Positions 27,055 through 38,973 of a stretch of DNA of 64,000 bases are shown piece after piece; within the stretch, counting starts at the first letter, position 1, and each line of letters begins with the position of its first letter. Below the pieces are notes generated by a model. The model was not told the origin of the DNA. It ran no database searches and saw nothing but the letters and a program-made list of their open reading frames with translations. The translations under genes and the position numbers were made by a program. The stretch is from the sequence record OP172790; one strand, given 5' to 3'. Source of the stretch: Escherichia phage ECO319P1.

Positions 27055-28854
27055 ATGTCAAAAGTATACGGAGCTAAACGGATTATCGGTGACTCACCTT
27101 GCCCAACTTGTACAGCGGCAGGTCGTGACAGAACCGGTAATCACTTGCAACACTGGATTAACGATGATACAGGCGAAGAGTGGGTTTATTGCGGACGTGA
27201 TGGTTACTATGAAAAGGTAACTGATGCAAACCGTGCTGACCTTGAATCTGTTCGTCATGTTCATCGTGAATTAACTGATGAAGAACGTGCAGCGGTTCTC
27301 GCTGAGGTTGACGAGTTGCCAATTCAGGAACTCACATCTCGTGGTATCCGAAAGGAAATCGCTGAACGTTATGGTGTTCGTGTTGGCCTGTCCAGCACTA
27401 ACCGTGAACAAATCTCTCACTTCTATCCGAAAGAGAAAGATGGTGAGGTGGTCGCTTATAAAGTTCGTAGTCTTGAGCCGAAGTATTTCTATGCGGTTGG
27501 TTCAGGTAGCGGATGTGATTTCTTTGGCATGTCTCAGGCTCGTCTGGGTGATGTGTACAGTGGCAAACTGTTCGTATTCGAAGATGAACTGAGTGCAATG
27601 TCAGGTTTCCAAGCTCTCATTGACGCATCCAAGTCAACTTACAAACCAGCATGTGTGGCTTTGCCAGATGGTGCAGGTTCGGCAGCAAGTGCATTTGCAC
27701 GTTGTCGTCAGTTTGTTGAGTCATTCCAAGATATCGTGGTCTGTATGGATAACGATGAAGCGGGTGATGATGCAGTTAACAAGCTGAGAGCGATGTATCC
27801 AAACATCAAGATTGCTCGTATTCCGAAGGGTATCTACGGTGACGGTAAGCATATCAAAGACGCCAATGACATGATTATGGCTAAGCGTTCTTTGGAGTTA
27901 AACAACTGCTTACGCTTCAATGCTGCAAAAGAATCTCCAGCAGGTTCAACAACTGTAGCGGAATGTATTGAAGATGCGCTGAAGAAACCTGAATGGGGTC
28001 TGAGTTATCCGTGGAAAGGTCTTACTGACTTAACCTTTGGTTTACGTTATGGTGAGGTGATTGCAATTGGTGGTGGTGTAGGTGGTGGTAAAACATTACT
28101 GGCACACGAACTGAGTGCTCACTTAATCAACGTTCACAAAGAGAAAGTTGGTGCATTCATGTTGGAAGAAACTGTAGGTAATACCATCAAGAACATTGCT
28201 GGTAAATCTGCAAATATTCCATTCCATCGTCCAGATGCTGAGTTCGACCCAGAACTGCTGAAAAGCGAAGCACTGAAATACGATGGTCACTTGTTCCTGT
28301 ATCGTAACTTCGGTCAAAACGATTGGGAAGATATCAAACGTTGTATGCGTTTCTGGGTTGTTGAACATGGTGTCAAGTTCATCTTCCTCGATAACATCAC
28401 AGCATTGGTATCACACTTGACAGCAACTGAGATTAACACTGAAGTTGCGAAGATTGCTGTTGAGTTGGCAGGTATGTGTAACGAGTTGGACTTCACTTGT
28501 TTTGTATTTAGCCACTTGAACCCACCGAAAGGTGGTGCTCCTCACGAGGAAGGTGGTCAAGTACAAGAGGTGCAGTTCACGGGTTCCCGTGCTCTGATGC
28601 GTTTCTCTCAGTTAATTCTGGGCTTTGAACGCAACAAGCAGGCAGATGGTGATGCTCGTAACCTTTCTCAGATTCGTCTGTTGAAAGACCGTAACTTCGG
28701 GCAGACAGGTCTTGTACCAACATCTTATAATCCAGTGACAGGCCGCTTAACACAGCGTCGTGATGAAGATTATGACCCGAAAAATCCGTTCCGCTTACCG
28801 GGTGAGCATGAGGACGACATGCAGGAAGATAATGGAAAGGATAAACCATTTTGA
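27055..28854 (+). CDS. bifunctional primase-helicase (T7 gp4-like)
   Basis: N-terminal Zn-binding Cys cluster, Toprim acidic motifs (FEDE, MDNDEAGDD), Walker A GGGVGGGKT. Confidence 0.85.
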   Translation: MSKVYGAKRIIGDSPCPTCTAAGRDRTGNHLQHWINDDTGEEWVYCGRDGYYEKVTDANRADLESVRHVHRELTDEERAAVLAEVDELPIQELTSRGIRKEIAERYGVRVGLSSTNREQISHFYPKEKDGEVVAYKVRSLEPKYFYAVGSGSGCDFFGMSQARLGDVYSGKLFVFEDELSAMSGFQALIDASKSTYKPACVALPDGAGSAASAFARCRQFVESFQDIVVCMDNDEAGDDAVNKLRAMYPNIKIARIPKGIYGDGKHIKDANDMIMAKRSLELNNCLRFNAAKESPAGSTTVAECIEDALKKPEWGLSYPWKGLTDLTFGLRYGEVIAIGGGVGGGKTLLAHELSAHLINVHKEKVGAFMLEETVGNTIKNIAGKSANIPFHRPDAEFDPELLKSEALKYDGHLFLYRNFGQNDWEDIKRCMRFWVVEHGVKFIFLDNITALVSHLTATEINTEVAKIAVELAGMCNELDFTCFVFSHLNPPKGGAPHEEGGQVQEVQFTGSRALMRFSQLILGFERNKQADGDARNLSQIRLLKDRNFGQTGLVPTSYNPVTGRLTQRRDEDYDPKNPFRLPGEHEDDMQEDNGKDKPF

Positions 28855-29345
28855 TTAAACTTGCAGCCACGGATATTGAAACGAATGGATTGTACTTTGA
28901 TGTAAATCTATTTCACTGTGCATGGATTGTGGAGCCATTAACCGGAAAACGGTTTGGCTTCCGTCCAGACCAACTTAAAGAATACGTTGAGAAGTTAATG
29001 ACTTATGACATTCTCATTGGTCACAACGTAATCGACTATGACTTCCCAACTATTAAGAAACTTTGTCCGGGATTTGAATGTCCGGCTGTTTTTGATACGT
29101 TGGTTCTTAGTCGTATGTTGGAACCAGACAGACCACAAGGTCACTCGTTGAAATCTTGGGGTGTAGCTCTTGGTTTGCTGAAAGGTGATTATGGTGAACA
29201 GGAAGATGCGTGGGACGTATTCACAGAGGACATGTATGTTTACTGTGAACGAGACGTTGACGTAACGGTTCTGCTCTATAAACACCTGTGTGAAAAGGCC
29301 GGTTTTGACTGGCAAAATCCACCATCAAATACTTTCAAATTCTGA
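28851..29345 (+). CDS. 3'-5' exonuclease domain of T7-type DNA polymerase, encoded as a separate gene
   Basis: Exo I DIETNGL, Exo II HNVIDYDF, Exo III YCERDVD; close to my recollection of T7 gp5 N-terminus; TTG start overlapping upstream stop. Confidence 0.75.
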   Translation: MIKLAATDIETNGLYFDVNLFHCAWIVEPLTGKRFGFRPDQLKEYVEKLMTYDILIGHNVIDYDFPTIKKLCPGFECPAVFDTLVLSRMLEPDRPQGHSLKSWGVALGLLKGDYGEQEDAWDVFTEDMYVYCERDVDVTVLLYKHLCEKAGFDWQNPPSNTFKF

Positions 29346-31038: not shown

Positions 31039-31044
31039 GTAATA

Positions 31045-31070
31045 GGCTGGCGGATGCTGGCCTTTTCTGT
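31045..31070 (+). terminator. intrinsic terminator
   Basis: 7-bp stem (two G-U pairs), GGAT loop, TTTT tail. Confidence 0.5.
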
Positions 31071-31088: not shown

Positions 31089-33212
31089 ATGGTTCGTGTA
31101 ACTAAACGTGATGGTAAGAACGTCGAGTTTGATATTAACCGTGTGATTAATGCCATTATGGCTGCTCAAAGCAATTTGGGTAAATCAAACTTTGATGAAG
31201 CACTGTCGATTGCAATGGCTGTGCAAGACCGATACATCAACGAAGAAAGTGTAACGATTGCTGATATTCAGAGTATGGTTGAAGACCTGCTGATGGTGAA
31301 AGACCCAGAGGTGGCTCGTAAGTATATCGAATATCGTGCAAAGCGTGACCGTGCTCGTGAGGAACAGTCCCCATTGGCGGTTGCCATTCGTGGATTAGTG
31401 GAGCAGACGGATGAATCAATCCTCAAAGAAAACGCTAACAAGGACGCAAAAGTCTTCCCTGTACAGCGAGATTTACTGGCAGGCGTGGTGTCTAAGCACT
31501 TCGCTCGCAATTACCTTCTTCCTCGTGATATTGTTGATGCTCACGAGAGAGGCGAAATTCATTACCACGATTTGGACTACTCTCCATTCCTACCTATGAC
31601 CAACTGTTGTTTGGTTGACCTCAAGGGTATGTTGAAGAATGGTTTCAAGTTAGGTAACGCTCAGATTGAGTCACCGAAATCTATTGGTGTGGCATGTGCA
31701 GTAATGGCTCAGATTACCGCTCAAGTTGCTTCTCACCAGTACGGTGGGACGACGTTCGCTAATATTGACCAAGTACTCGCACCGTATGCAGAGACAACCT
31801 TTAATAAGCACATGCAACGTGGTTATGATTGGGGGGTTTCAGATACGGAAGCCTATGCCAAAGAACTCACTGTTAAAGAAATTTATGATGGGATTCAAGC
31901 ATATGAATACGAAATTAATACCCTCTTCACCACAAATGGACAGCAACCATTCGTTACTGTTACATTCGGTATGGGAACTAGCTGGTTCGAACGAGAAATC
32001 CAGAAAGCAATCCTCAAGGTTCGTATTAAGGGTCTCGGCGCGGAAGGTCTCACTGCGGTTTTCCCGAAACTCGTAATGTTCATGGACGAGGGTATCAACC
32101 TTAAACCGGAAGACCCGAATTATGATATTAAGCAGCTTGCACTTGAATGCTCCTCCAAGCGTCTGTATCCAGATATTATCAGCGCGAAAGCTAACAGAGC
32201 TATCACTGGCTCAAACGTACCTGTTAGTCCTATGGGGTGTCGTTCTTTCCTCAGTGTGTGGAAGGACGGAGATGGAAATGAGGTGCTCGACGGACGCAAC
32301 AACCTCGGCGTTGTTAGTCTCAACCTTCCTCGTATTGCCATCGAATCAGGGAAGGATTTCAACAAATTCCTCACTATCCTTGACGAACGCCTTACACTTG
32401 CTAAAAGAGCACTTGATACCCGCATTGAACGCTTACGTGGTGTTAAAGCTGCTGTTGCCCCAATTCTCTACACCGAGGGAGCGTTTGGAGTTCGTCTCCA
32501 ACCCGATGATGATATCATCAATATCTTCAAGCACGGTCGAAGCTCTATTAGCTTGGGATACATCGGACTCCATGAAGTCGGACTTCTGATGTGGGATAAG
32601 TCCCCTTCGGATGATGAAGAAGTTGCACGTTCTTGTCGAGCAATTATTCGTCATTTAGCTAATGCTACTGAGAGGTGGAAGGAAGAGTCTGAAGAGGGCT
32701 GGGGTTATAGCTTATACGCTACACCTTCAGAGTCTCTGTGTGACCGATTCTGTCGTTTGGATAAAGAACAATTTGGGGAGATTGCTGGTGTCACTGACAA
32801 AGATTATTACACTAATAGTTTCCATCAGGATGTTTATAAGCATTCTAACCCTTTCGACAAGATTGACCATGAAGCGCCTTATCACTTTATTTCAAGTGCG
32901 GGTCATATTAGCTATGCTGAGTTTCCGAATGTTCGTAACAACCTCCAAGGTTTGGAAACAGTTTGGGACTACGCAATGAGCCATCTGGACTACTTCGGGA
33001 CAAACACTCCGAGCGATAAATGCTTGAAGTGCCACTTCGAAGGTGAGTTCAAGATTAACAGTGAAGGTTTCCACTGTCCGAATTGCGGCAATCATGACAG
33101 CAAATCAATGTCAGTGATTCGTCGTGTATGTGGGTATTTGGGTTCTCCAAATGCTCGTGGATTTAACCACGGAAAGAACGAGGAGGTCATTCGTCGTGTC
33201 AAACATGTCTGA
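31089..33212 (+). CDS. nrdD: anaerobic ribonucleoside-triphosphate reductase
   Basis: ATP-cone N-terminus, C-terminal glycyl-radical motif RRVCGYLGS and Zn ribbon CLKC...CPNC. Confidence 0.9.
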   Translation: MVRVTKRDGKNVEFDINRVINAIMAAQSNLGKSNFDEALSIAMAVQDRYINEESVTIADIQSMVEDLLMVKDPEVARKYIEYRAKRDRAREEQSPLAVAIRGLVEQTDESILKENANKDAKVFPVQRDLLAGVVSKHFARNYLLPRDIVDAHERGEIHYHDLDYSPFLPMTNCCLVDLKGMLKNGFKLGNAQIESPKSIGVACAVMAQITAQVASHQYGGTTFANIDQVLAPYAETTFNKHMQRGYDWGVSDTEAYAKELTVKEIYDGIQAYEYEINTLFTTNGQQPFVTVTFGMGTSWFEREIQKAILKVRIKGLGAEGLTAVFPKLVMFMDEGINLKPEDPNYDIKQLALECSSKRLYPDIISAKANRAITGSNVPVSPMGCRSFLSVWKDGDGNEVLDGRNNLGVVSLNLPRIAIESGKDFNKFLTILDERLTLAKRALDTRIERLRGVKAAVAPILYTEGAFGVRLQPDDDIINIFKHGRSSISLGYIGLHEVGLLMWDKSPSDDEEVARSCRAIIRHLANATERWKEESEEGWGYSLYATPSESLCDRFCRLDKEQFGEIAGVTDKDYYTNSFHQDVYKHSNPFDKIDHEAPYHFISSAGHISYAEFPNVRNNLQGLETVWDYAMSHLDYFGTNTPSDKCLKCHFEGEFKINSEGFHCPNCGNHDSKSMSVIRRVCGYLGSPNARGFNHGKNEEVIRRVKHV

Positions 33213-33237
33213 TGAACATCCGGATTTTTAGTATCGA

Positions 33238-33266
33238 GGGGCTCCTGCGGGAGCCTTTTCTTTTTG
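33238..33266 (+). terminator. intrinsic terminator after nrdD
   Basis: GGCTCC-TGCG-GGAGCC hairpin followed by TTTTCTTTTT. Confidence 0.7.
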
Positions 33267-33276
33267 GAGGTTTAAA

Positions 33277-33429
33277 TGATTGTTCGTAACCGATTGACTG
33301 GTCAATTCGAAAATGCCACTTTCAAAGATGGCTGTTGGGGTTTCCATGAAACTGACGTACAAGAAGGGCTGCCTGATTGCAGCACTGAAGAACAAAGAAG
33401 TGGAAGCGATAGCTCACCAAGCTAATTGC
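33277..33429 (+). CDS. small upstream ORF (50 aa) overlapping the macro gene start
   Basis: strong GGAGG RBS 5 nt upstream of ATG 33277; different frame from macro gene. Confidence 0.3.
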
Positions 33430-33816
33430 TTTTGCACCATGAAGTCTGGCATAGCACCACAGATTGCTAATGCTTGGCCTCAAGTCCGTGAAGTCGATAA
33501 GTTGACTAACTACGGTGACAAGGATAAGATGGGTTCATACTCACTTGCCACTGTTCCCGAAGGTTTTGTGTTCAACATCTATGGTCAATACCATTGGAAT
33601 CGGAGAAACGCTGGTTATGGCACTTCTTATGAGCATCTTGGGATGGGGCTGTCTAGCGTCGCTGACTTTATGGTTAATCATAAGGTTCAAACTTTGGGTC
33701 TGCCTCGAATTGGTTGTGGACTTGCTGGAGGCGATTGGGGGATTGTAGAACACCTAATCAAACACCACTTTGCACACACCGACATTGAAGTAATTGTCTA
33801 CGAACTGGAGAAGTAA
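33346..33816 (+). CDS. macro domain protein
   Basis: KLTYKKGCLIAALKNKEVEAIAHQAN aligns with the macro N-terminal G...AN motif; start placed at ATG 33346. Confidence 0.65.
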   Translation: MKLTYKKGCLIAALKNKEVEAIAHQANCFCTMKSGIAPQIANAWPQVREVDKLTNYGDKDKMGSYSLATVPEGFVFNIYGQYHWNRRNAGYGTSYEHLGMGLSSVADFMVNHKVQTLGLPRIGCGLAGGDWGIVEHLIKHHFAHTDIEVIVYELEK

Positions 33817-34943
33817 TGTTAAAGTTAAAAGTACTGGAAGAACTCGGTAAGCCATACAAAATCTTCACAGACCATGTGGAGAGCAGTGCTATTGAGCAGT
33901 TTGTTGCAGTGATGCAGCAGCCTGATGTGAAACAAGGTGCATTAATGCCTGATGTTCATGCAGGTTATGTTCTGCCAATTGGTGGTGTAGTTGCTACTGA
34001 GTGGACAATCTACCCATCGTTTGTCGGTTACGACATTGGTTGTGGTGTCTGCACCATGCCAACGGATATCAGTGCTCTCGACTTACTGGAAAACCCAGCT
34101 AAGTATAAAGCAGCAGTTGAAAAGGTTGTACCTGTGGGCTTCACTGTCCATCAGCAACCATTCGACTTAGCTGAACTGGAACGCCACATTGGTCGTGCTC
34201 CAGAAAGTATTCGTGACATTGCTGAGAGCCATCTGACTCAGGTTGGTACTCTTGGTGGTGGTAATCACTTTGTTGAAATCGGTATCGCTGAGAAAGATGG
34301 TCGTGTTCACATCAGCATTCACTCAGGCTCTCGTGGCATGGGTGCTCGTGTTGCTGAGAAATACATGCAGCTTTCAGGTGGTGAAGGTATCAACCCAATT
34401 GACACTCGTGAACCACTTGGTCGTGAGTATCTGGCTGCTATGAATTACTGCTTACGTTGGGCATTGTTCAACCGTAAGATGATGGTTAAGAATATTATGG
34501 AAGAGTTAGGTCTGGAGTTTAACACCTATCGTACACCTGATATCTTCATCAACCGTAATCATAACCACGCAGAATTCAAGGATGGTTTGTGGATTCATCG
34601 TAAGGGAGCTACACATGCTGAAGATGGAATGTTCGGCGTTATCCCAGCTAACATGCGTGATGGAGTTTACATTGTACGTGGGCGCGGTAACCCTGACTCT
34701 CTTTGCTCTTCTTCTCACGGCGCTGGTCGTGTCATGTCTCGGTCAAAAGCCAAAAAGACTTTCTCTCTGGAAGACTTCCAGTATCAGATGGGTAATGTCG
34801 ATGCTGATGGGTTTACTATTGATGAAAAGCGTATTGACGAAGCACCGGGTGCATATAAAGACATTCACGAAGTGATGAAAAATCAGACTGACTTGATTGA
34901 CATCATTGACCATGTTAAACCAGTTGTAAACGTTAAGGGTTAA
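33816..34943 (+). CDS. rtcB: RtcB-type RNA ligase
   Basis: GGNHF, HNHAEF and SSSHGAGR motifs. Confidence 0.8.
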   Translation: MLKLKVLEELGKPYKIFTDHVESSAIEQFVAVMQQPDVKQGALMPDVHAGYVLPIGGVVATEWTIYPSFVGYDIGCGVCTMPTDISALDLLENPAKYKAAVEKVVPVGFTVHQQPFDLAELERHIGRAPESIRDIAESHLTQVGTLGGGNHFVEIGIAEKDGRVHISIHSGSRGMGARVAEKYMQLSGGEGINPIDTREPLGREYLAAMNYCLRWALFNRKMMVKNIMEELGLEFNTYRTPDIFINRNHNHAEFKDGLWIHRKGATHAEDGMFGVIPANMRDGVYIVRGRGNPDSLCSSSHGAGRVMSRSKAKKTFSLEDFQYQMGNVDADGFTIDEKRIDEAPGAYKDIHEVMKNQTDLIDIIDHVKPVVNVKG

Positions 34944-34945
34944 TT

Positions 34946-35194
34946 ATGAGCTTCACAACAATGCCAACTTGTCCACGCTGTAGCTTCAAGATGCACATCA
35001 GTGCTCGCGGTCAGTATAGTTGTTCCAATTGTGGACACCGTAAGGATATTCCGGGAAGTTCTTCTAACAGTGGAACTCCGGCATATGACCCTTGGGTTAT
35101 GAGTCAGTACGACTCTACTCCGAGCTATGACCCAACACCATCTTACTCAAGTGACTGCTCAAGCTCTGACTTTGGCAGTTGCTCTTTCGACTAA
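34946..35194 (+). CDS. small zinc-ribbon protein with Ser/Pro-rich tail
   Basis: CPRC...CSNC. Confidence 0.4.
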   Translation: MSFTTMPTCPRCSFKMHISARGQYSCSNCGHRKDIPGSSSNSGTPAYDPWVMSQYDSTPSYDPTPSYSSDCSSSDFGSCSFD

Positions 35195-35203
35195 GGCGGA
35201 ATA

Positions 35204-35704
35204 ATGAATTACCATCAATATTACCCAACGGATATGCTAAATGGGCCGGGAATCAGGAACGTACTCTTCGTCAGTGGTTGCACACACGGATGCAAAGGTT
35301 GTTACAATGAGTCTACTTGGAATCCAAAATCGGGTATGGCCTTCACAAAAGAGTTGGAAGACCAGATTATCCGAGACCTCCAAGATACGCGAATCAAGCG
35401 TGATGGACTCACCCTCTCCGGAGGTGACCCGCTTCATGAAAGAAATATTCTACCCCTCATTCAGTTAGTACAGCGAGTGAGAAAAGAGTGCCCCGATAAG
35501 ACAATCTGGATGTGGACTGGATATACGCTTCCTGAACTGGAGGCTATGCGTGACCACACTCAGGTTCACAGTGACCGGTATTATCTGGCAACACTTGTTG
35601 ATGTTCTTGTTGATGGTAAGTTTGTTCAAGAGTTGCATGACCCTACGCTGAAGTTTGTTGGGTCGTCCAATCAAAACATTATCGAAATTAAAAATGTATC
35701 GTAA
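35204..35704 (+). CDS. nrdG: anaerobic RNR activating enzyme (radical SAM)
   Basis: C-x3-C-x2-C cluster in GCTHGCKGC near N-terminus; 166 aa. Confidence 0.75.
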   Translation: MNYHQYYPTDMLNGPGIRNVLFVSGCTHGCKGCYNESTWNPKSGMAFTKELEDQIIRDLQDTRIKRDGLTLSGGDPLHERNILPLIQLVQRVRKECPDKTIWMWTGYTLPELEAMRDHTQVHSDRYYLATLVDVLVDGKFVQELHDPTLKFVGSSNQNIIEIKNVS

Positions 35705-37137: not shown

Positions 37138-38973
37138 ATGGAAATCACATCAAGCTGGGACAAACCGTTCCAACTCGAACAGAAAGTGGCTCACATTATT
37201 AGCCAACAAGCAAAGCATGGATGCGACTTCAATAGTCGTAATGCTCATTGGTATGTTCATCTGTTAACTGAACGTATCATCAACATTGATTTGCAGTTGG
37301 TTCCAACTCTGCCACCTATGATGCACAAAGGCACTGAATACAAGGCTCCGTTCAAGATGAATGGTAAGCCGAAGGTGTTTGTCCAGAAGTATATGGACGC
37401 TCAAGGTCTGACAGAGGATATGGTAGGTGGCCCGTTTACAGCGGTGTGGTTTACCCCGTTCGACCCAAGTAAAACTTCACGTCTAAAAGATGTGATGTTG
37501 GACATGGGGTGGATGCCTACTGAATGGAACCAGAAGAAGATGCCGTTTCAACTTTGGACGTATAAAAAGCGTCTGGAGAAGACGACCTTCCGCAAGTTCA
37601 TGGAAGAGCAGACAAGTACCGACGAACGTGAACTATTTCTTCCCTTAGTTAATGGTTTTGTTGCTCAACATTTTGTTGGGAAATCAAAAGGTTACATGAA
37701 AGCAATCCTCAGTGCTCTGGGGTTTGATTTAAAGCGTGTACCGAATTTTGACCAGATTAAGAAGCGTCTTTTGTTGAGTCAGTTCTGGCCGACTTCTCCA
37801 AAAATCACTGAAGATTCATTTGAGTCAGTAAGTGAGGAAGAAGGTCATTCACTGAAACTCCTGAAAGAGCGTATGGTGTGGTCGCACCGTCGTTCACTGA
37901 TTCAGGGTTTGATTGAACTGACTCGTCAGGATGGTAAAATCTCTGGTGAAGCTAACCCATGTGCAACTCCGACAGCACGTATGAGACACAAGGGTATTGT
38001 AAACATTCCAGCCGCAGGTGCTCCTTTCGGTGAAGAGTGTCGCTCATTGTTCCGTGGTAATAAACGTACTGGAACAAAAGCAAAGATTATTCATAAACTT
38101 ACTGCACAGATGGTTGAATCTGGTAAGTTTCGTCGTAAACCGTTCACTAATATCATGCAGGTTTCAAATGGTAAAGGTGGATGGGAAGACGAAGGTCATG
38201 TATCATTCCTGATTCCAGCGGGGCAAGATGCTTTCGTTGGTGGTGATGGTGCAGGTCTTGAACTTCGAATGTTGACTCACTACCTGATTGCAGTATCCAA
38301 AATGCTTCTGAAAGACGCTGAGGAAGCGGGTAATGATAAGTTAATCCGTTACTACGGTGCCGCTTTACAGTCAGCATATGAGTATCGTGAGGTTCTTCTG
38401 AATGGTGATATTCACAGTCACAACCAGAAGCTCGCAGGTCTGCCAACTCGTAAGTCAGCTAAGACGTTTATCTACGCATTCTTATATGGTGCTGGTGATG
38501 CGAACTTGGGTGGTCAACTTGGTGCAGGCCGTGAAGAGGGTGCAGCTTTACGTGCTCGATTCTTGAAAGAATGTCCTTGTATTCCAGTTCTGATTGAGTG
38601 GGTTCAGGATTTTGCCAAGAAGAATGGTTGGGTTCCGGCAATTGATGGTCGTAAACTTATCATGCGTCGTGACCCTTTCAGTGGCGAAGTTATGGCTCAC
38701 AAAGCACTGAATACAATGTTACAAGCAGCAGGTTCAATCGTGATGAAATATGCAGGTTGTTATCTGACTTCTTGGAATGCTCGTGATTGCTTAGATGCAC
38801 ATCAGGTTATCATGATGCACGATGAATATCAGTTCACTTGCAAATGGGAAGATGTTGAAGCTTTACGTCGTAACATTGACTCGTGTGTTAAGAAAGCTGG
38901 TGAATATTTGAAAATGGAATGTCCATTAGCGTCTGACTCAATGTTAGGTGCAAACTGGCTTCATACCCACTAA
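37138..38973 (+). CDS. family A DNA polymerase, polymerase domain only (T7 gp5-like)
   Basis: motif A DGAGLELRM, motif B KTFIYAFLYGAG, motif C HDEYQF. Confidence 0.85.
   Translation: MEITSSWDKPFQLEQKVAHIISQQAKHGCDFNSRNAHWYVHLLTERIINIDLQLVPTLPPMMHKGTEYKAPFKMNGKPKVFVQKYMDAQGLTEDMVGGPFTAVWFTPFDPSKTSRLKDVMLDMGWMPTEWNQKKMPFQLWTYKKRLEKTTFRKFMEEQTSTDERELFLPLVNGFVAQHFVGKSKGYMKAILSALGFDLKRVPNFDQIKKRLLLSQFWPTSPKITEDSFESVSEEEGHSLKLLKERMVWSHRRSLIQGLIELTRQDGKISGEANPCATPTARMRHKGIVNIPAAGAPFGEECRSLFRGNKRTGTKAKIIHKLTAQMVESGKFRRKPFTNIMQVSNGKGGWEDEGHVSFLIPAGQDAFVGGDGAGLELRMLTHYLIAVSKMLLKDAEEAGNDKLIRYYGAALQSAYEYREVLLNGDIHSHNQKLAGLPTRKSAKTFIYAFLYGAGDANLGGQLGAGREEGAALRARFLKECPCIPVLIEWVQDFAKKNGWVPAIDGRKLIMRRDPFSGEVMAHKALNTMLQAAGSIVMKYAGCYLTSWNARDCLDAHQVIMMHDEYQFTCKWEDVEALRRNIDSCVKKAGEYLKMECPLASDSMLGANWLHTH

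Follow-up and report, generated by a model that had tools for sequence, protein, structure and literature searches.

A conserved small open reading frame overlapping the start of a SCO6735-type macro domain gene in a Crifsvirus-like phage

The macro fold is an alpha/beta sandwich with a central six-stranded sheet. Among macro domain proteins, SCO6735 of Streptomyces coelicolor strips ADP-ribose both from thymidine in DNA and from Glu/Asp in protein, and it rescues cells from DarT; its N27 and Q85 are required for removal of the thymidine-linked adduct, and the Gln at the catalytic-Lys position is held by a conserved Asn (PMC9411070). In phages, the stand-alone macro protein AdfM (PhiKZ gp104 and its relatives) counters DarTG2 and provides a precedent for the removal of DarT2 ADP-ribose from DNA (PMC13309987), and the DarTG2 resistance of T-even phages is still unexplained (PMC11825919). 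Aravind and colleagues have argued that most phage macro domains act on soluble ADP-ribose derivatives, not on macromolecular adducts (PMC9503650).

The window, i.e., the whole 64,000-nucleotide stretch of Escherichia phage ECO319P1 (OP172790) that was analyzed, belongs to a Crifsvirus-like phage of the Grimontviridae. It carries a macro domain gene of 156 amino acids (33346..33816, plus strand), assigned to the TARG1/DarG/SCO6735 class by sequence and structure searches. The order along the window was nrdD, a terminator-like hairpin, a GGAGG element, a small upstream ORF (uORF), the macro gene, RtcB, a Zn-ribbon ORF, and nrdG, all on the plus strand. The nrdD gene (31089..33212) encodes an anaerobic ribonucleotide reductase of 707 amino acids (Pfam NRDD, 589 bits, with Gly_radical and ATP-cone). 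Downstream, the start of the RtcB RNA ligase gene (33816..34943; Pfam RtcB, 269.7 bits) overlaps the macro stop codon (TAATG) and is followed by an 82-amino-acid Zn-ribbon ORF with a Ser/Pro/Tyr-rich tail (34946..35194) and by nrdG (35204..35704; Pfam Fer4_12, 174 bits, and Radical_SAM), which encodes the activating enzyme of the anaerobic reductase. By gene order the macro gene lies inside the nrd operon, as a preliminary description had stated, but a terminator-like G+C hairpin followed by a T-run (33236..33259, plus strand), found by sequence scan, parts nrdD from the uORF/macro pair. This hairpin was specific to the window, being absent from the upstream sequences of GAP52 and A24 with which it was compared. 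No DarT-like gene was found among the ORFs neighboring the macro gene (nrdD, RtcB, the Zn-ribbon ORF, and nrdG).

The identity of the macro domain, proposed earlier from the DNA letters, was borne out by a sequence match to PDB 5E3B and by AF2 and Foldseek. SCO6735 (5E3B) was the best solved-structure sequence match, with E = 1.6e-13 and an identity of only about 30%, and BT1257 (2AFC/2FG1), of the Gln-type branch of the ALC1-like/TARG1-like class, was the next (E = 3e-12); TARG1 and DarG were matched by sequence as well. The Pfam Macro model PF01661 scored 20.3 bits, below its gathering score of 22, and was carried by many macro homologues at 36–50% identity. The AF2 model (pLDDT 96.1, pTM 0.91) had the macro fold, and Foldseek matched it to TARG1, BT1257, DarG, and Poa1p at prob 1.00 with TM values of 0.77–0.91. 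The ADP-ribose-binding motifs aligned with those of 5e3b, 2afc, and 4j5r. The macro protein and SCO6735 had in common H-x-x-N27, a G-Q at the catalytic position, and a GCGLAGG-x-W phosphate loop. In 52 homologues, N27 and Q81 were invariant, and G35, G123-C-G-L-A-G-G129, and W131 were invariant or nearly so. Gln thus occupied the position of the TARG1/DarG catalytic Lys, which defines the SCO6735-type (Gln) branch, with Q81 corresponding to Q85 and N27 to N27 of SCO6735. The two proteins differed at position 25, which is Gln in the macro protein and Val in SCO6735, a residue deemed SCO6735-specific by its authors; K34 and K89 of SCO6735 were not kept in place, with K33 and R86/R87 of the macro protein nearby. 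Unlike SCO6735, the macro protein is phage-encoded and adjoins RtcB, and its activity is a predicted one.

Human TARG1/OARD1 was the best structural match (TM 0.81–0.91), and the DarG macro domains of T. aquaticus and M. tuberculosis matched at 0.79. The K84/D125 dyad of TARG1 was missing from the macro protein: in the alignment Arg86 stood opposite K84 and Ala127 opposite D125, GCGLD(125)RLQW of TARG1 aligning with GCGLA(127)GGDW, and the Lys84 region read NRR/GQ with no conserved Lys. The published structure-based alignment has Gln at the catalytic-Lys position (Q81 here). DarG K80 was missing as well, as was the C-terminal DarT-binding domain of DarG, the macro protein having 156 amino acids in all. 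Only positions 10–148 of the 338 in the NCBIfam DarG model were covered, with 46.7 bits against a cutoff of 250 bits, and both the NCBIfam and PADLOC DarG models matched the macro part only. The macro protein is not a DarG antitoxin, as it has neither the C-terminal domain nor an adjacent darT. AdfM, which was set beside the macro protein by description, also belongs to the DarG/TARG1 class and stands alone as a phage macro protein; it keeps the DarG-type N23/K78, whereas the macro protein has N27/Q81, and unlike the latter it comes from nucleus-forming jumbo phages. Since the macro protein has neither the catalytic Lys of DarG and AdfM nor the Lys/Asp dyad of TARG1, those enzymes do not reveal what its substrate is.

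There was also a strong match (1.5e-52) to PHROG 335, named 'phosphatase' (Macro_Poa1p-like; the T-even tk.4 or vs-adjacent gene). This macro family, present in thousands of phages, comprised 2,922 phage records, T6 and further T-even phages among them, with identities of 26–49%. Its name was inherited from yeast Poa1p, an ADP-ribose-1''-phosphate phosphatase, and for the phage proteins the label is putative; the present analysis assigns this 'phosphatase' to the macro hydrolases of the SCO6735-type branch. We assign the macro protein with high confidence to the TARG1/DarG/SCO6735 class, with the SCO6735-type Asn27/Gln81 pair. Because this pair is present, the protein is plausibly, by analogy, a hydrolase of ADP-ribosylated DNA or protein and possibly an anti-DarT2 protein. 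The preliminary description had suggested that a macro enzyme could reverse ADP-ribosylation of DNA or protein, which was reasonable as a prediction since members of this class take ADP-ribose off DarT-modified thymidine in DNA and off proteins (PMC9411070). The macro protein is therefore a candidate Gln-type stand-alone factor against DarT2, or against ADP-ribosylation of RNA or protein, in podoviruses of Enterobacteriaceae.

Nine relatives had the same gene arrangement, giving ten sequences with the window. Their macro proteins were 61–91% identical, the macro-RtcB neighborhood was kept, and nrdD lay upstream wherever the contig reached. In the macro frame of the window, three ATGs precede the stop codon at 33814–33816, namely those at 33313, 33328, and 33346. 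The last of these ATGs was preceded, with a 5-nt spacer, by the SD-like element GGGG (33337..33340, plus strand), and its predicted pairing energy (UGGGG, −5.4 kcal/mol) compared with −2.2 and +0.1 kcal/mol at the other two. ATG 33346 was kept in all ten sequences, even behind a 3-nt insertion, and the macro homologues from other phages all began at the residue encoded there (MKLTYKKG...), with no N-terminal extension in any of them. The +1 frame upstream of this ATG was not conserved. A start at 33313 was rejected, this ATG being window-specific and without an SD in a preceding frame that was unconstrained; 33328, the choice made by RefSeq in relatives, was rejected also, as the equivalent ATG was missing in L004 and L008 and had no SD. 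This comparison indicated that the macro gene starts at ATG 33346 and probably initiates independently. The strength of its SD was in the middle of the range for 18 neighboring starts, close to that of RtcB and of the Zn-ribbon ORF; the value of −5.4 kcal/mol recurred in seven of the nine relatives, within a range of −4.7 to −9.1 kcal/mol.

The uORF (33276..33425, plus strand) consists of 49 codons and TAA, MIVRNRLTGQFENATFKDGCWGFHETDVQEGLPDCSTEEQRSGSDSSPS, and its SD is GGAGG (33266..33270, plus strand; duplex dG −10.0 kcal/mol). A small ORF with a perfect GGAGG, overlapping the macro gene in another frame, had been described before; the element is real, with a 5-nt spacer, and so is the overlap, but the ATG lies at 33276 rather than 33277, the ORF has 49 codons rather than 50 amino acids, and the overlap is 80 nt rather than 84, because the macro gene starts at ATG 33346. 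The macro frame is +1 relative to the uORF, and the GGGG of the macro gene is made by Trp-Gly codons of the uORF. The uORF SD was among the strongest of the 18 neighboring starts. The window had 17 occurrences of GGAGG-N3-9-ATG where 9.1 were expected, and at all 12 of the plus-strand sites in the plus-strand gene block an ORF of at least 49 amino acids began. In this window the combination marks the beginning of a real ORF almost without exception. Two parts were distinguished in the uORF: a core of 23 codons (33276..33344, plus strand) with the motif M-x-VRN-xx-TG-x-FE-xxx-F-xxx-CWGF, and a tail of 26 codons (33345..33425, plus strand), which overlaps the macro gene and is net acidic and predicted to be disordered. 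The uORF was unannotated in RefSeq relatives, including the GAP52 and A24 records. The discovery is modest and at the level of annotation, with no new kind of system involved. The RefSeq records of GAP52 and A24 lack the 49-codon gene, and its addition, together with a macro start placed six codons downstream, amends the annotation of a phage genus.

The uORF was open, with ATG or TTG as the start codon, in all nine relatives sharing the locus, and no stop, frameshift, or lost start was found in it among the ten sequences of clade members compared. The pN/pS of the core was 0.25 in its own frame; four other frames gave 1.13–1.33, and the antisense frame with common third positions gave 0.45. 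The uORF frame was the sole stop-free one of six across the core. Variable columns were distributed over codon positions 1, 2, and 3 as 12, 7, and 20 of 23 (chi-square p = 5e-4). Ten residues were invariant, each with two to four different codons across the sequences, and with a pS of 0.65 the synonymous sites of the core were near saturation. In all ten sequences the core ended 1–4 nt before the macro AUG, and there conservation stopped. For the tail, pN/pS was 1.38 when read in the uORF frame and 0.23 when read in the macro frame, and the tail of L008 was 21 nt shorter. These results indicated, from patterns of substitution, that the uORF core is protein-coding and under purifying selection in the uORF frame only. 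No selection of its own was seen in the tail; the lowered synonymous variation of macro codons 2–26 (0.34, against 0.54 over the remaining codons of the gene; 10 of 104 control blocks were equally low) may leave room for some constraint. The preliminary description had named lack of conservation of the uORF in relatives as an argument against it, and this argument fails because the uORF was conserved with its coding signature in all nine relatives. We regard the uORF as a candidate gene, whose translation we infer from its conservation.

An AF2 model of the uORF product, built on a very shallow alignment of three sequences, had the core as a beta-meander whose turns are TG and D/N-G (residues 1–20 at a pLDDT of about 85), and pLDDT in the tail was 52–64. 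The searches found no homologue beyond the clade, no paralogue, and no structural match for the uORF protein, and the peptide matched no curated protein family. By tblastn it matched no other phage record, including non-Crifsvirus members of the PHROG 335 macro family, and in three more distant macro homologues (L007, L013, and L014) the upstream genes were unrelated to the uORF. Scans of IMG/VR returned one distant macro locus and nothing matching the junction sequence. As an orphan whose selection signature is clear, the uORF offers a clean test case for the effect of a long out-of-frame overlap on downstream expression.

Like coupled pairs and leader peptides, the uORF has its own SD and would be translated across the initiation region of the next gene. 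The contrast between a strong uORF RBS and a weak macro RBS, from which coupling had been proposed, proved to be window-specific: in the relatives the uORF SD ranged from −2.2 to −7.9 kcal/mol, and in L001, L004, and L005 it was weaker than the macro SD. Classical translational coupling did not fit either, as the upstream stop was not beside the downstream start; the uORF stop lay 59–80 nt inside the macro gene (77–80 nt downstream of the macro ATG, and 56–59 nt in L008). Termination-reinitiation is unlikely because the overlap is 80 nt and out of frame, and not 1–4 nt as in the stop-start overlaps (ATGA/TAATG) of bacteria and phages. A weak small hairpin, GGUUUC-CAU-GAAACU, holds the macro AUG (33339..33353, plus strand); it had 6 bp and about −4 to −6 kcal/mol in seven close sequences, with no compensatory change, and was not kept in L006, L008, and L010, the relatives that diverge most. 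RNAalifold gave a covariation term of −0.27 at the junction, the start-site hairpin showed no compensatory pairs, and Rfam gave only a 19-bit chance match there. On these grounds it is unlikely that the junction holds an RNA structure that is conserved or belongs to a known family. A hairpin of this kind may couple the two genes by masking the macro RBS until upstream translation opens it.

We consider it somewhat probable that the locus holds two separate overlapping protein-coding genes, the uORF and an independently initiated macro hydrolase of the SCO6735 type. The uORF would encode a 49-residue protein with its functional part in the first 23 residues, a small beta-meander with the invariant CWGF, and the acidic 26-residue tail would be an unselected run-on into the macro gene. 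The macro gene would initiate on its own at ATG 33346 via UGGGG, a chance product of the uORF Trp-Gly codons. For the substrate of the enzyme and for any regulatory interplay of the two genes, we infer the following. The enzyme would most likely hydrolyze ADP-ribose from a macromolecule. Precedent is best for the ADP-ribosyl-thymidine that DarT2-type toxins make in ssDNA; given the conserved RtcB neighbor, proteins or RNA ends carrying ADP-ribose would be alternatives. Since ribosomes on the uORF must cross the macro start site, uORF translation would affect macro initiation to some degree, by occlusion or by melting of weak local structure; this effect would be a by-product of the overlap, and not stop-start coupling or frameshifting.

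It is less probable, and to us rather doubtful, that the uORF is a cis-acting leader whose conserved nascent peptide, ending in CWGF, causes the ribosome to slow down or stall over the SD and AUG of the macro gene; this would set or modulate how far the macro gene and RtcB, which is translationally linked to it, are translated, and a metabolite may be the signal. The 23-residue core would fit inside the exit tunnel, and its end 1–4 nt before the macro AUG in the ten sequences, the unselected tail, and the lack of any homologue or paralogue elsewhere, as expected of a locus-bound element, are all consistent with such a leader. The uORF also stayed tied to the macro start while the upstream context varied (terminator, homing endonuclease, nrdD overlap, or mini-ORF). 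However, the core resembles a folded beta-meander with alternating hydrophobic residues, TG and D/N-G turns, and the AF2 pLDDT of about 85; the peptide matches no curated family, there is no conserved RNA structure to transmit a stall, and the strength of uORF initiation is not conserved. The core is not known to resemble the arrest peptides SecM, TnaC, and MifM.

That the core is the leftover N-terminus of an older, longer gene, neutral or decaying, we regard as quite unlikely. The 3' part would have been lost by deletion or by a rearrangement associated with a homing endonuclease, so that the frame now reads into the macro gene. The 80-nt out-of-frame overlap is unusual beside the 1–14 nt of other tightly packed genes, a rearrangement hotspot with an HNH-AP2 endonuclease present or absent lies directly upstream, nrdD of L005 runs straight into the uORF start with no intergenic gap, and the tail is unselected. 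Against such a remnant, the core has stayed under purifying selection (pN/pS 0.25) while pS, at 0.65, nears saturation, and the clade members retain the intact frame and its start.

The C-terminal domain of DarG and the 77-amino-acid phage protein AdfB bind and block the ADP-ribosyltransferase toxin. By analogy, the uORF and the macro gene may form a split DarG-like counter-defense in which the macro protein erases ADP-ribose from phage DNA and the 49-residue protein binds and blocks the toxin, or else the nascent peptide would be a new arrest-type sensor gating macro-RtcB. We hold this pair of proposals to be very improbable; both are suggested by no more than position, conservation, and charge (for the split system, a beta-meander and an acidic tail that may be DNA-mimic-like).

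Still lower stands the view that the uORF is a chance ORF, conserved through nucleotide-level constraints such as a promoter, an RBS, or an RNA element for the macro gene, which we consider very unlikely. The region does hold the macro RBS, and for random sequence we estimate the probability that an alternative frame stays open over the 26 codons of the tail at about 0.3. The substitutions were nonetheless codon-periodic and frame-specific, with synonymous change at the ten invariant residues, and there was neither an Rfam match nor a covarying structure.

A programmed frameshift (+1 or −2 near UGGGGUUUC) fusing a 23-residue leader to the macro domain was rejected as hardly credible because there is no conserved slippery site into the macro frame and no N-terminal extension: selection does move from frame 0 to +1 within a few nucleotides of 33345 and the window has the formally slippery heptamer G GGU UUC, but this heptamer leads to the −1 frame with a stop after one codon (CCA UGA) and not to the macro frame, and is not conserved (GGC UUC in L006 and GGA UUU in L010), and no +1 site is kept. 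Phe23 and the ATG are separated by 1–4 nt of differing sequence (C, G, A, AAGG, GAAG); in frame 0 the changes at Gly22 and Phe23 are synonymous, the +1 frame ahead of the ATG lacks conservation, and the macro ATG is itself conserved with its SD-like element.

Two further contigs, P0079 and P0080, carried the uORF called as a 49-amino-acid protein.

The window was 84–89% identical, around the small ORF and the macro domain gene, to the Cronobacter phages vB_CsaP_GAP52 and A24 (Grimontviridae, Crifsvirus). In the window, nrdD (31089–33212, + strand) was followed by a terminator-like hairpin (33236–33259), the GGAGG (33266–33270) that serves as Shine-Dalgarno (SD) sequence of the small ORF, the small ORF itself (33276–33425, + strand, 49 codons), and the macro ORF, which lies in the +1 frame relative to it and ends at 33816. 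RtcB (33816–34943), starting in a TAATG shared with the macro stop, an ORF for an 82-aa Zn-ribbon protein (34946–35194), and nrdG (35204–35704) came next. The preliminary description had reported a GGAGG-led ORF of 50 aa starting at 33277; such an ORF was present, with its start at 33276 and a length of 49 codons. In the annotation of GAP52 and A24, the macro gene was given as a 162-aa "phosphatase" and the upstream ORF was left unannotated. The SD of the small ORF (−10.0 kcal/mol) was among the strongest of 18 neighbouring starts. GGAGG-N3-9-ATG occurred 17 times in the window (9.1 expected), and all 12 of the + strand sites in the + strand gene block opened ORFs of at least 49 aa, so that in this genome the pattern predicts real starts well.

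Relatives were gathered by protein search and contig look-up, which gave nine loci with the small ORF (GAP52, A24, and seven metagenomic contigs). At these loci the macro protein was 61–91% identical to that of the window, the macro-RtcB neighbourhood was kept, and nrdD lay upstream wherever the contig extended that far. The small ORF was open over 43–50 codons with a start codon (ATG or TTG) in 9/9; it was also called as a 49-aa protein on two more contigs (P0079 and P0080), and its core was found on one truncated contig. The first 23 codons, referred to as the core, had the consensus M-x-VRN-xx-TG-x-FE-xxx-F-xxx-CWGF. Variable columns in the core numbered 12, 7, and 20 at codon positions 1, 2, and 3, respectively (chi-square p = 5e-4), and ten invariant residues were each written with two to four codons. 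The pooled pN/pS of the core was 0.25 in the small-ORF frame, the only stop-free one of six. The antisense frame sharing third positions gave 0.45, and the four remaining frames 1.13–1.33. On these sequence comparisons, the pattern is a coding signature and not nucleotide-level conservation, so that the upstream ORF pointed out in the preliminary description gained in strength as a real, conserved, unannotated small gene. Macro homologues at 57–62% identity (loci L007, L009, L013, and L014) had a different context, upstream of nrdD, and were preceded by an unrelated 61–69-aa gene with an ordinary 1–14-nt overlap. No homologue of the small protein outside the clade was found in phage genomes or among 5.8 billion proteins, and a search of 1.84 billion cluster representatives added only repetitive low-complexity proteins and no homologue. 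There was likewise no match in four profile libraries or among solved structures, and no paralogue in the window and the fetched loci.

The macro frame contained three ATGs, at 33313, 33328, and 33346, and the alignments and SD energies identify the last as the true start. Homologues from many other phages all start at the equivalent residue, with none N-terminally extended; the 33313 ATG was unique to the window, and the equivalent of 33328 was lost in two relatives (L004 and L008). Only 33346 had an SD-like element (UGGGG, dG −5.4 kcal/mol, vs −2.2 and +0.1 at the other two ATGs), and the +1 frame ahead of it lacked coding constraint (pN/pS 1.19). The overlap of the two ORFs is thus 80 nt, not the 84 nt reported before. 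The RefSeq "phosphatase" of GAP52 (L001 5054–5542) and A24 (L002 5056–5544), which begins MDVGVSMKL..., probably starts six codons too far upstream. That ATG, which L004 and L008 lack, is a side effect of the D/N-G codons in the small ORF. The macro SD was mid-range among the 18 neighbouring starts and not unusually weak, and the contrast drawn before with a strong upstream SD was peculiar to the window, the latter ranging from −2.2 to −7.9 kcal/mol elsewhere.

Within the overlap, pN/pS was 0.23 in the macro frame, where substitutions were synonymous, and 1.38 in the small-ORF frame, where they were non-synonymous. The synonymous rate of macro codons 2–26 was somewhat low (0.34, vs 0.54 in the rest of the gene), but 10 of 104 control blocks were equally low. 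The tail was 21 nt shorter in L008. AF2, which is weak evidence here with only three sequences, predicted a disordered tail and a beta-meander core (pLDDT about 85). A single nucleotide separated the core from the macro ATG (four in L008 and L010), and this spacer varied (C, G, A, AAGG, GAAG). The start of the small ORF overlapped the end of a homing-endonuclease gene in L001 and L004 and the end of nrdD in L005; what stayed constant across relatives was the core peptide and where it lies relative to the macro start.

The locus is best explained by two overlapping genes, one encoding an orphan mini-protein whose functional part is the 23-residue core, the other an SCO6735-type ADP-ribosyl hydrolase. 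The novelty lies at the level of annotation, as small genes of the overlapping kind and orphan macro hydrolases of phages are both already known. The main rival, a cis-acting leader peptide encoded by the small ORF, is suggested by the exact meeting of the core end with the macro AUG, and we regard it as improbable. A 6-bp hairpin (GGUUUC-CAU-GAAACU) holding the macro AUG in seven close sequences was a weak structure of about −4 to −6 kcal/mol; the three most divergent relatives lacked it, no compensatory change was seen among the sequences, and an Rfam search of the junction matched no family. Termination-reinitiation coupling is unlikely because the stop of the small ORF lies 59–80 nt inside the macro gene. 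The coupling or regulation suggested in the preliminary description found partial support only: the macro gene has an initiation site of its own, the stop-near-start arrangement of classical coupling is lacking, and the difference in RBS strength is not conserved among relatives. Some effect of small-ORF translation on macro initiation is predicted as physically unavoidable. A frameshift fusion protein was ruled out, since a −1 shift at the formally slippery heptamer of the window (G GGU UUC) would stop after one codon (CCA UGA), neither that heptamer nor any +1 site was conserved in relatives, synonymous variation at Gly22 and Phe23 persists in frame 0, and a conserved ATG of its own opens the macro gene.

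The macro protein matched Pfam Macro just under threshold and PHROG 335 at 1.5e-52, and the DarG models of NCBIfam and PADLOC matched in their macro part only. The closest solved structures were SCO6735 (5e3b, 1.6e-13), BT1257, TARG1, and DarG macro domains, and the AF2 model (pLDDT 96) matched TARG1 (TM 0.81–0.91), BT1257, DarG, and Poa1p in Foldseek. The Lys84/Asp125 dyad of TARG1 and Lys80 of DarG were missing from the phage protein. Its Asn27 and Gln81, invariant in 52 homologues, aligned with Asn27 and Gln85 of SCO6735. These SCO6735 residues are needed to remove thymidine-linked ADP-ribose from DNA; SCO6735 has activity on Glu/Asp-ADP-ribosylated protein as well, and it can rescue cells from DarT (PMC9411070). 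AdfM, a DarG-type phage macro protein, was recently shown to counter DarTG2 (PMC13309987), and T4 without its known anti-DarT factors is still DarTG2-resistant (PMC11825919); the family of the phage macro protein also occurs in T-even phages at about 33% identity. The predicted SCO6735-type hydrolase probably serves counter-defence. From comparative genomics, soluble ADP-ribose derivatives have been argued to be the targets of most phage macro domains (PMC9503650), and a role at RNA ends would suit the conserved RtcB neighbour too; for both reasons, we only infer a substrate. In the Vibrio phages Pontus, VPMCC14, and P018-4, the homologous macro gene adjoins a gene annotated as ribose-phosphate pyrophosphokinase, pointing, in other lineages, to a possible connection with ADP-ribose/NAD salvage and not with DNA de-ADP-ribosylation.

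Terminator-like hairpins flanked nrdD on both sides (31044–31063 and 33236–33259). The second leaves no space for a sigma-70 promoter ahead of the small ORF, so that macro-RtcB-nrdG would need read-through, or the hairpin would be an RNA processing or stability element. In GAP52 (L001 4527–5015), L004 (2444–2944), and L008 (2322–2846), nrdD and the small ORF were separated by an HNH-AP2 homing endonuclease, which was absent from the window (33213–33275), A24, L005, and L011. As homology between the window and GAP52 starts exactly at the small-ORF ATG, the window has the "empty" site, occupied by the hairpin. In L005 (about 1173–1210) the intergenic region was gone and the end of nrdD (...KHVGS*) ran 17 nt into the small ORF; the endonuclease frame of GAP52 stopped at the same TCGTAA within small-ORF codons 4–5, so that both loci form a series of successively overlapping ORFs (upstream gene, small ORF, macro, RtcB). 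Directly upstream of the small ORF and overlapping its start, L006 (about 2228–2310), L010 (about 510–590), and L012 (90–170) had an extra mini-ORF of ~26 codons, not in the window, for a hydrophobic peptide (e.g. MATGLFELFMTVVICFCLKGNSDASA), preceded in L010 and L012 by a terminator-like hairpin. Two divergent relatives had an additional 99-aa ORF between macro and RtcB (L008 3471–3770, L010 1135–1434). The 82-aa protein between RtcB and nrdG (PHROG 29294, unknown function), kept in relatives with varying length, combined a CxxC...CxxC zinc ribbon at its N-terminus with a low-complexity tail rich in Ser, Pro, Tyr, and Asp. DNA polymerase I was split in the window into separate 3'-5' exonuclease and polymerase subunits (28851–29345 and 37138–38973), ~8 kb apart, with a nucleotide-metabolism block between them (dCTP deaminase, thioredoxin, Dps/ferritin-like, nrdD/G, MazG). 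GAP52 (L016 29540–30163) also encoded a PnuC-like nicotinamide mononucleotide/riboside transporter and a nucleoside 2-deoxyribosyltransferase, so that further NAD- and nucleoside-related functions occur in the genus.
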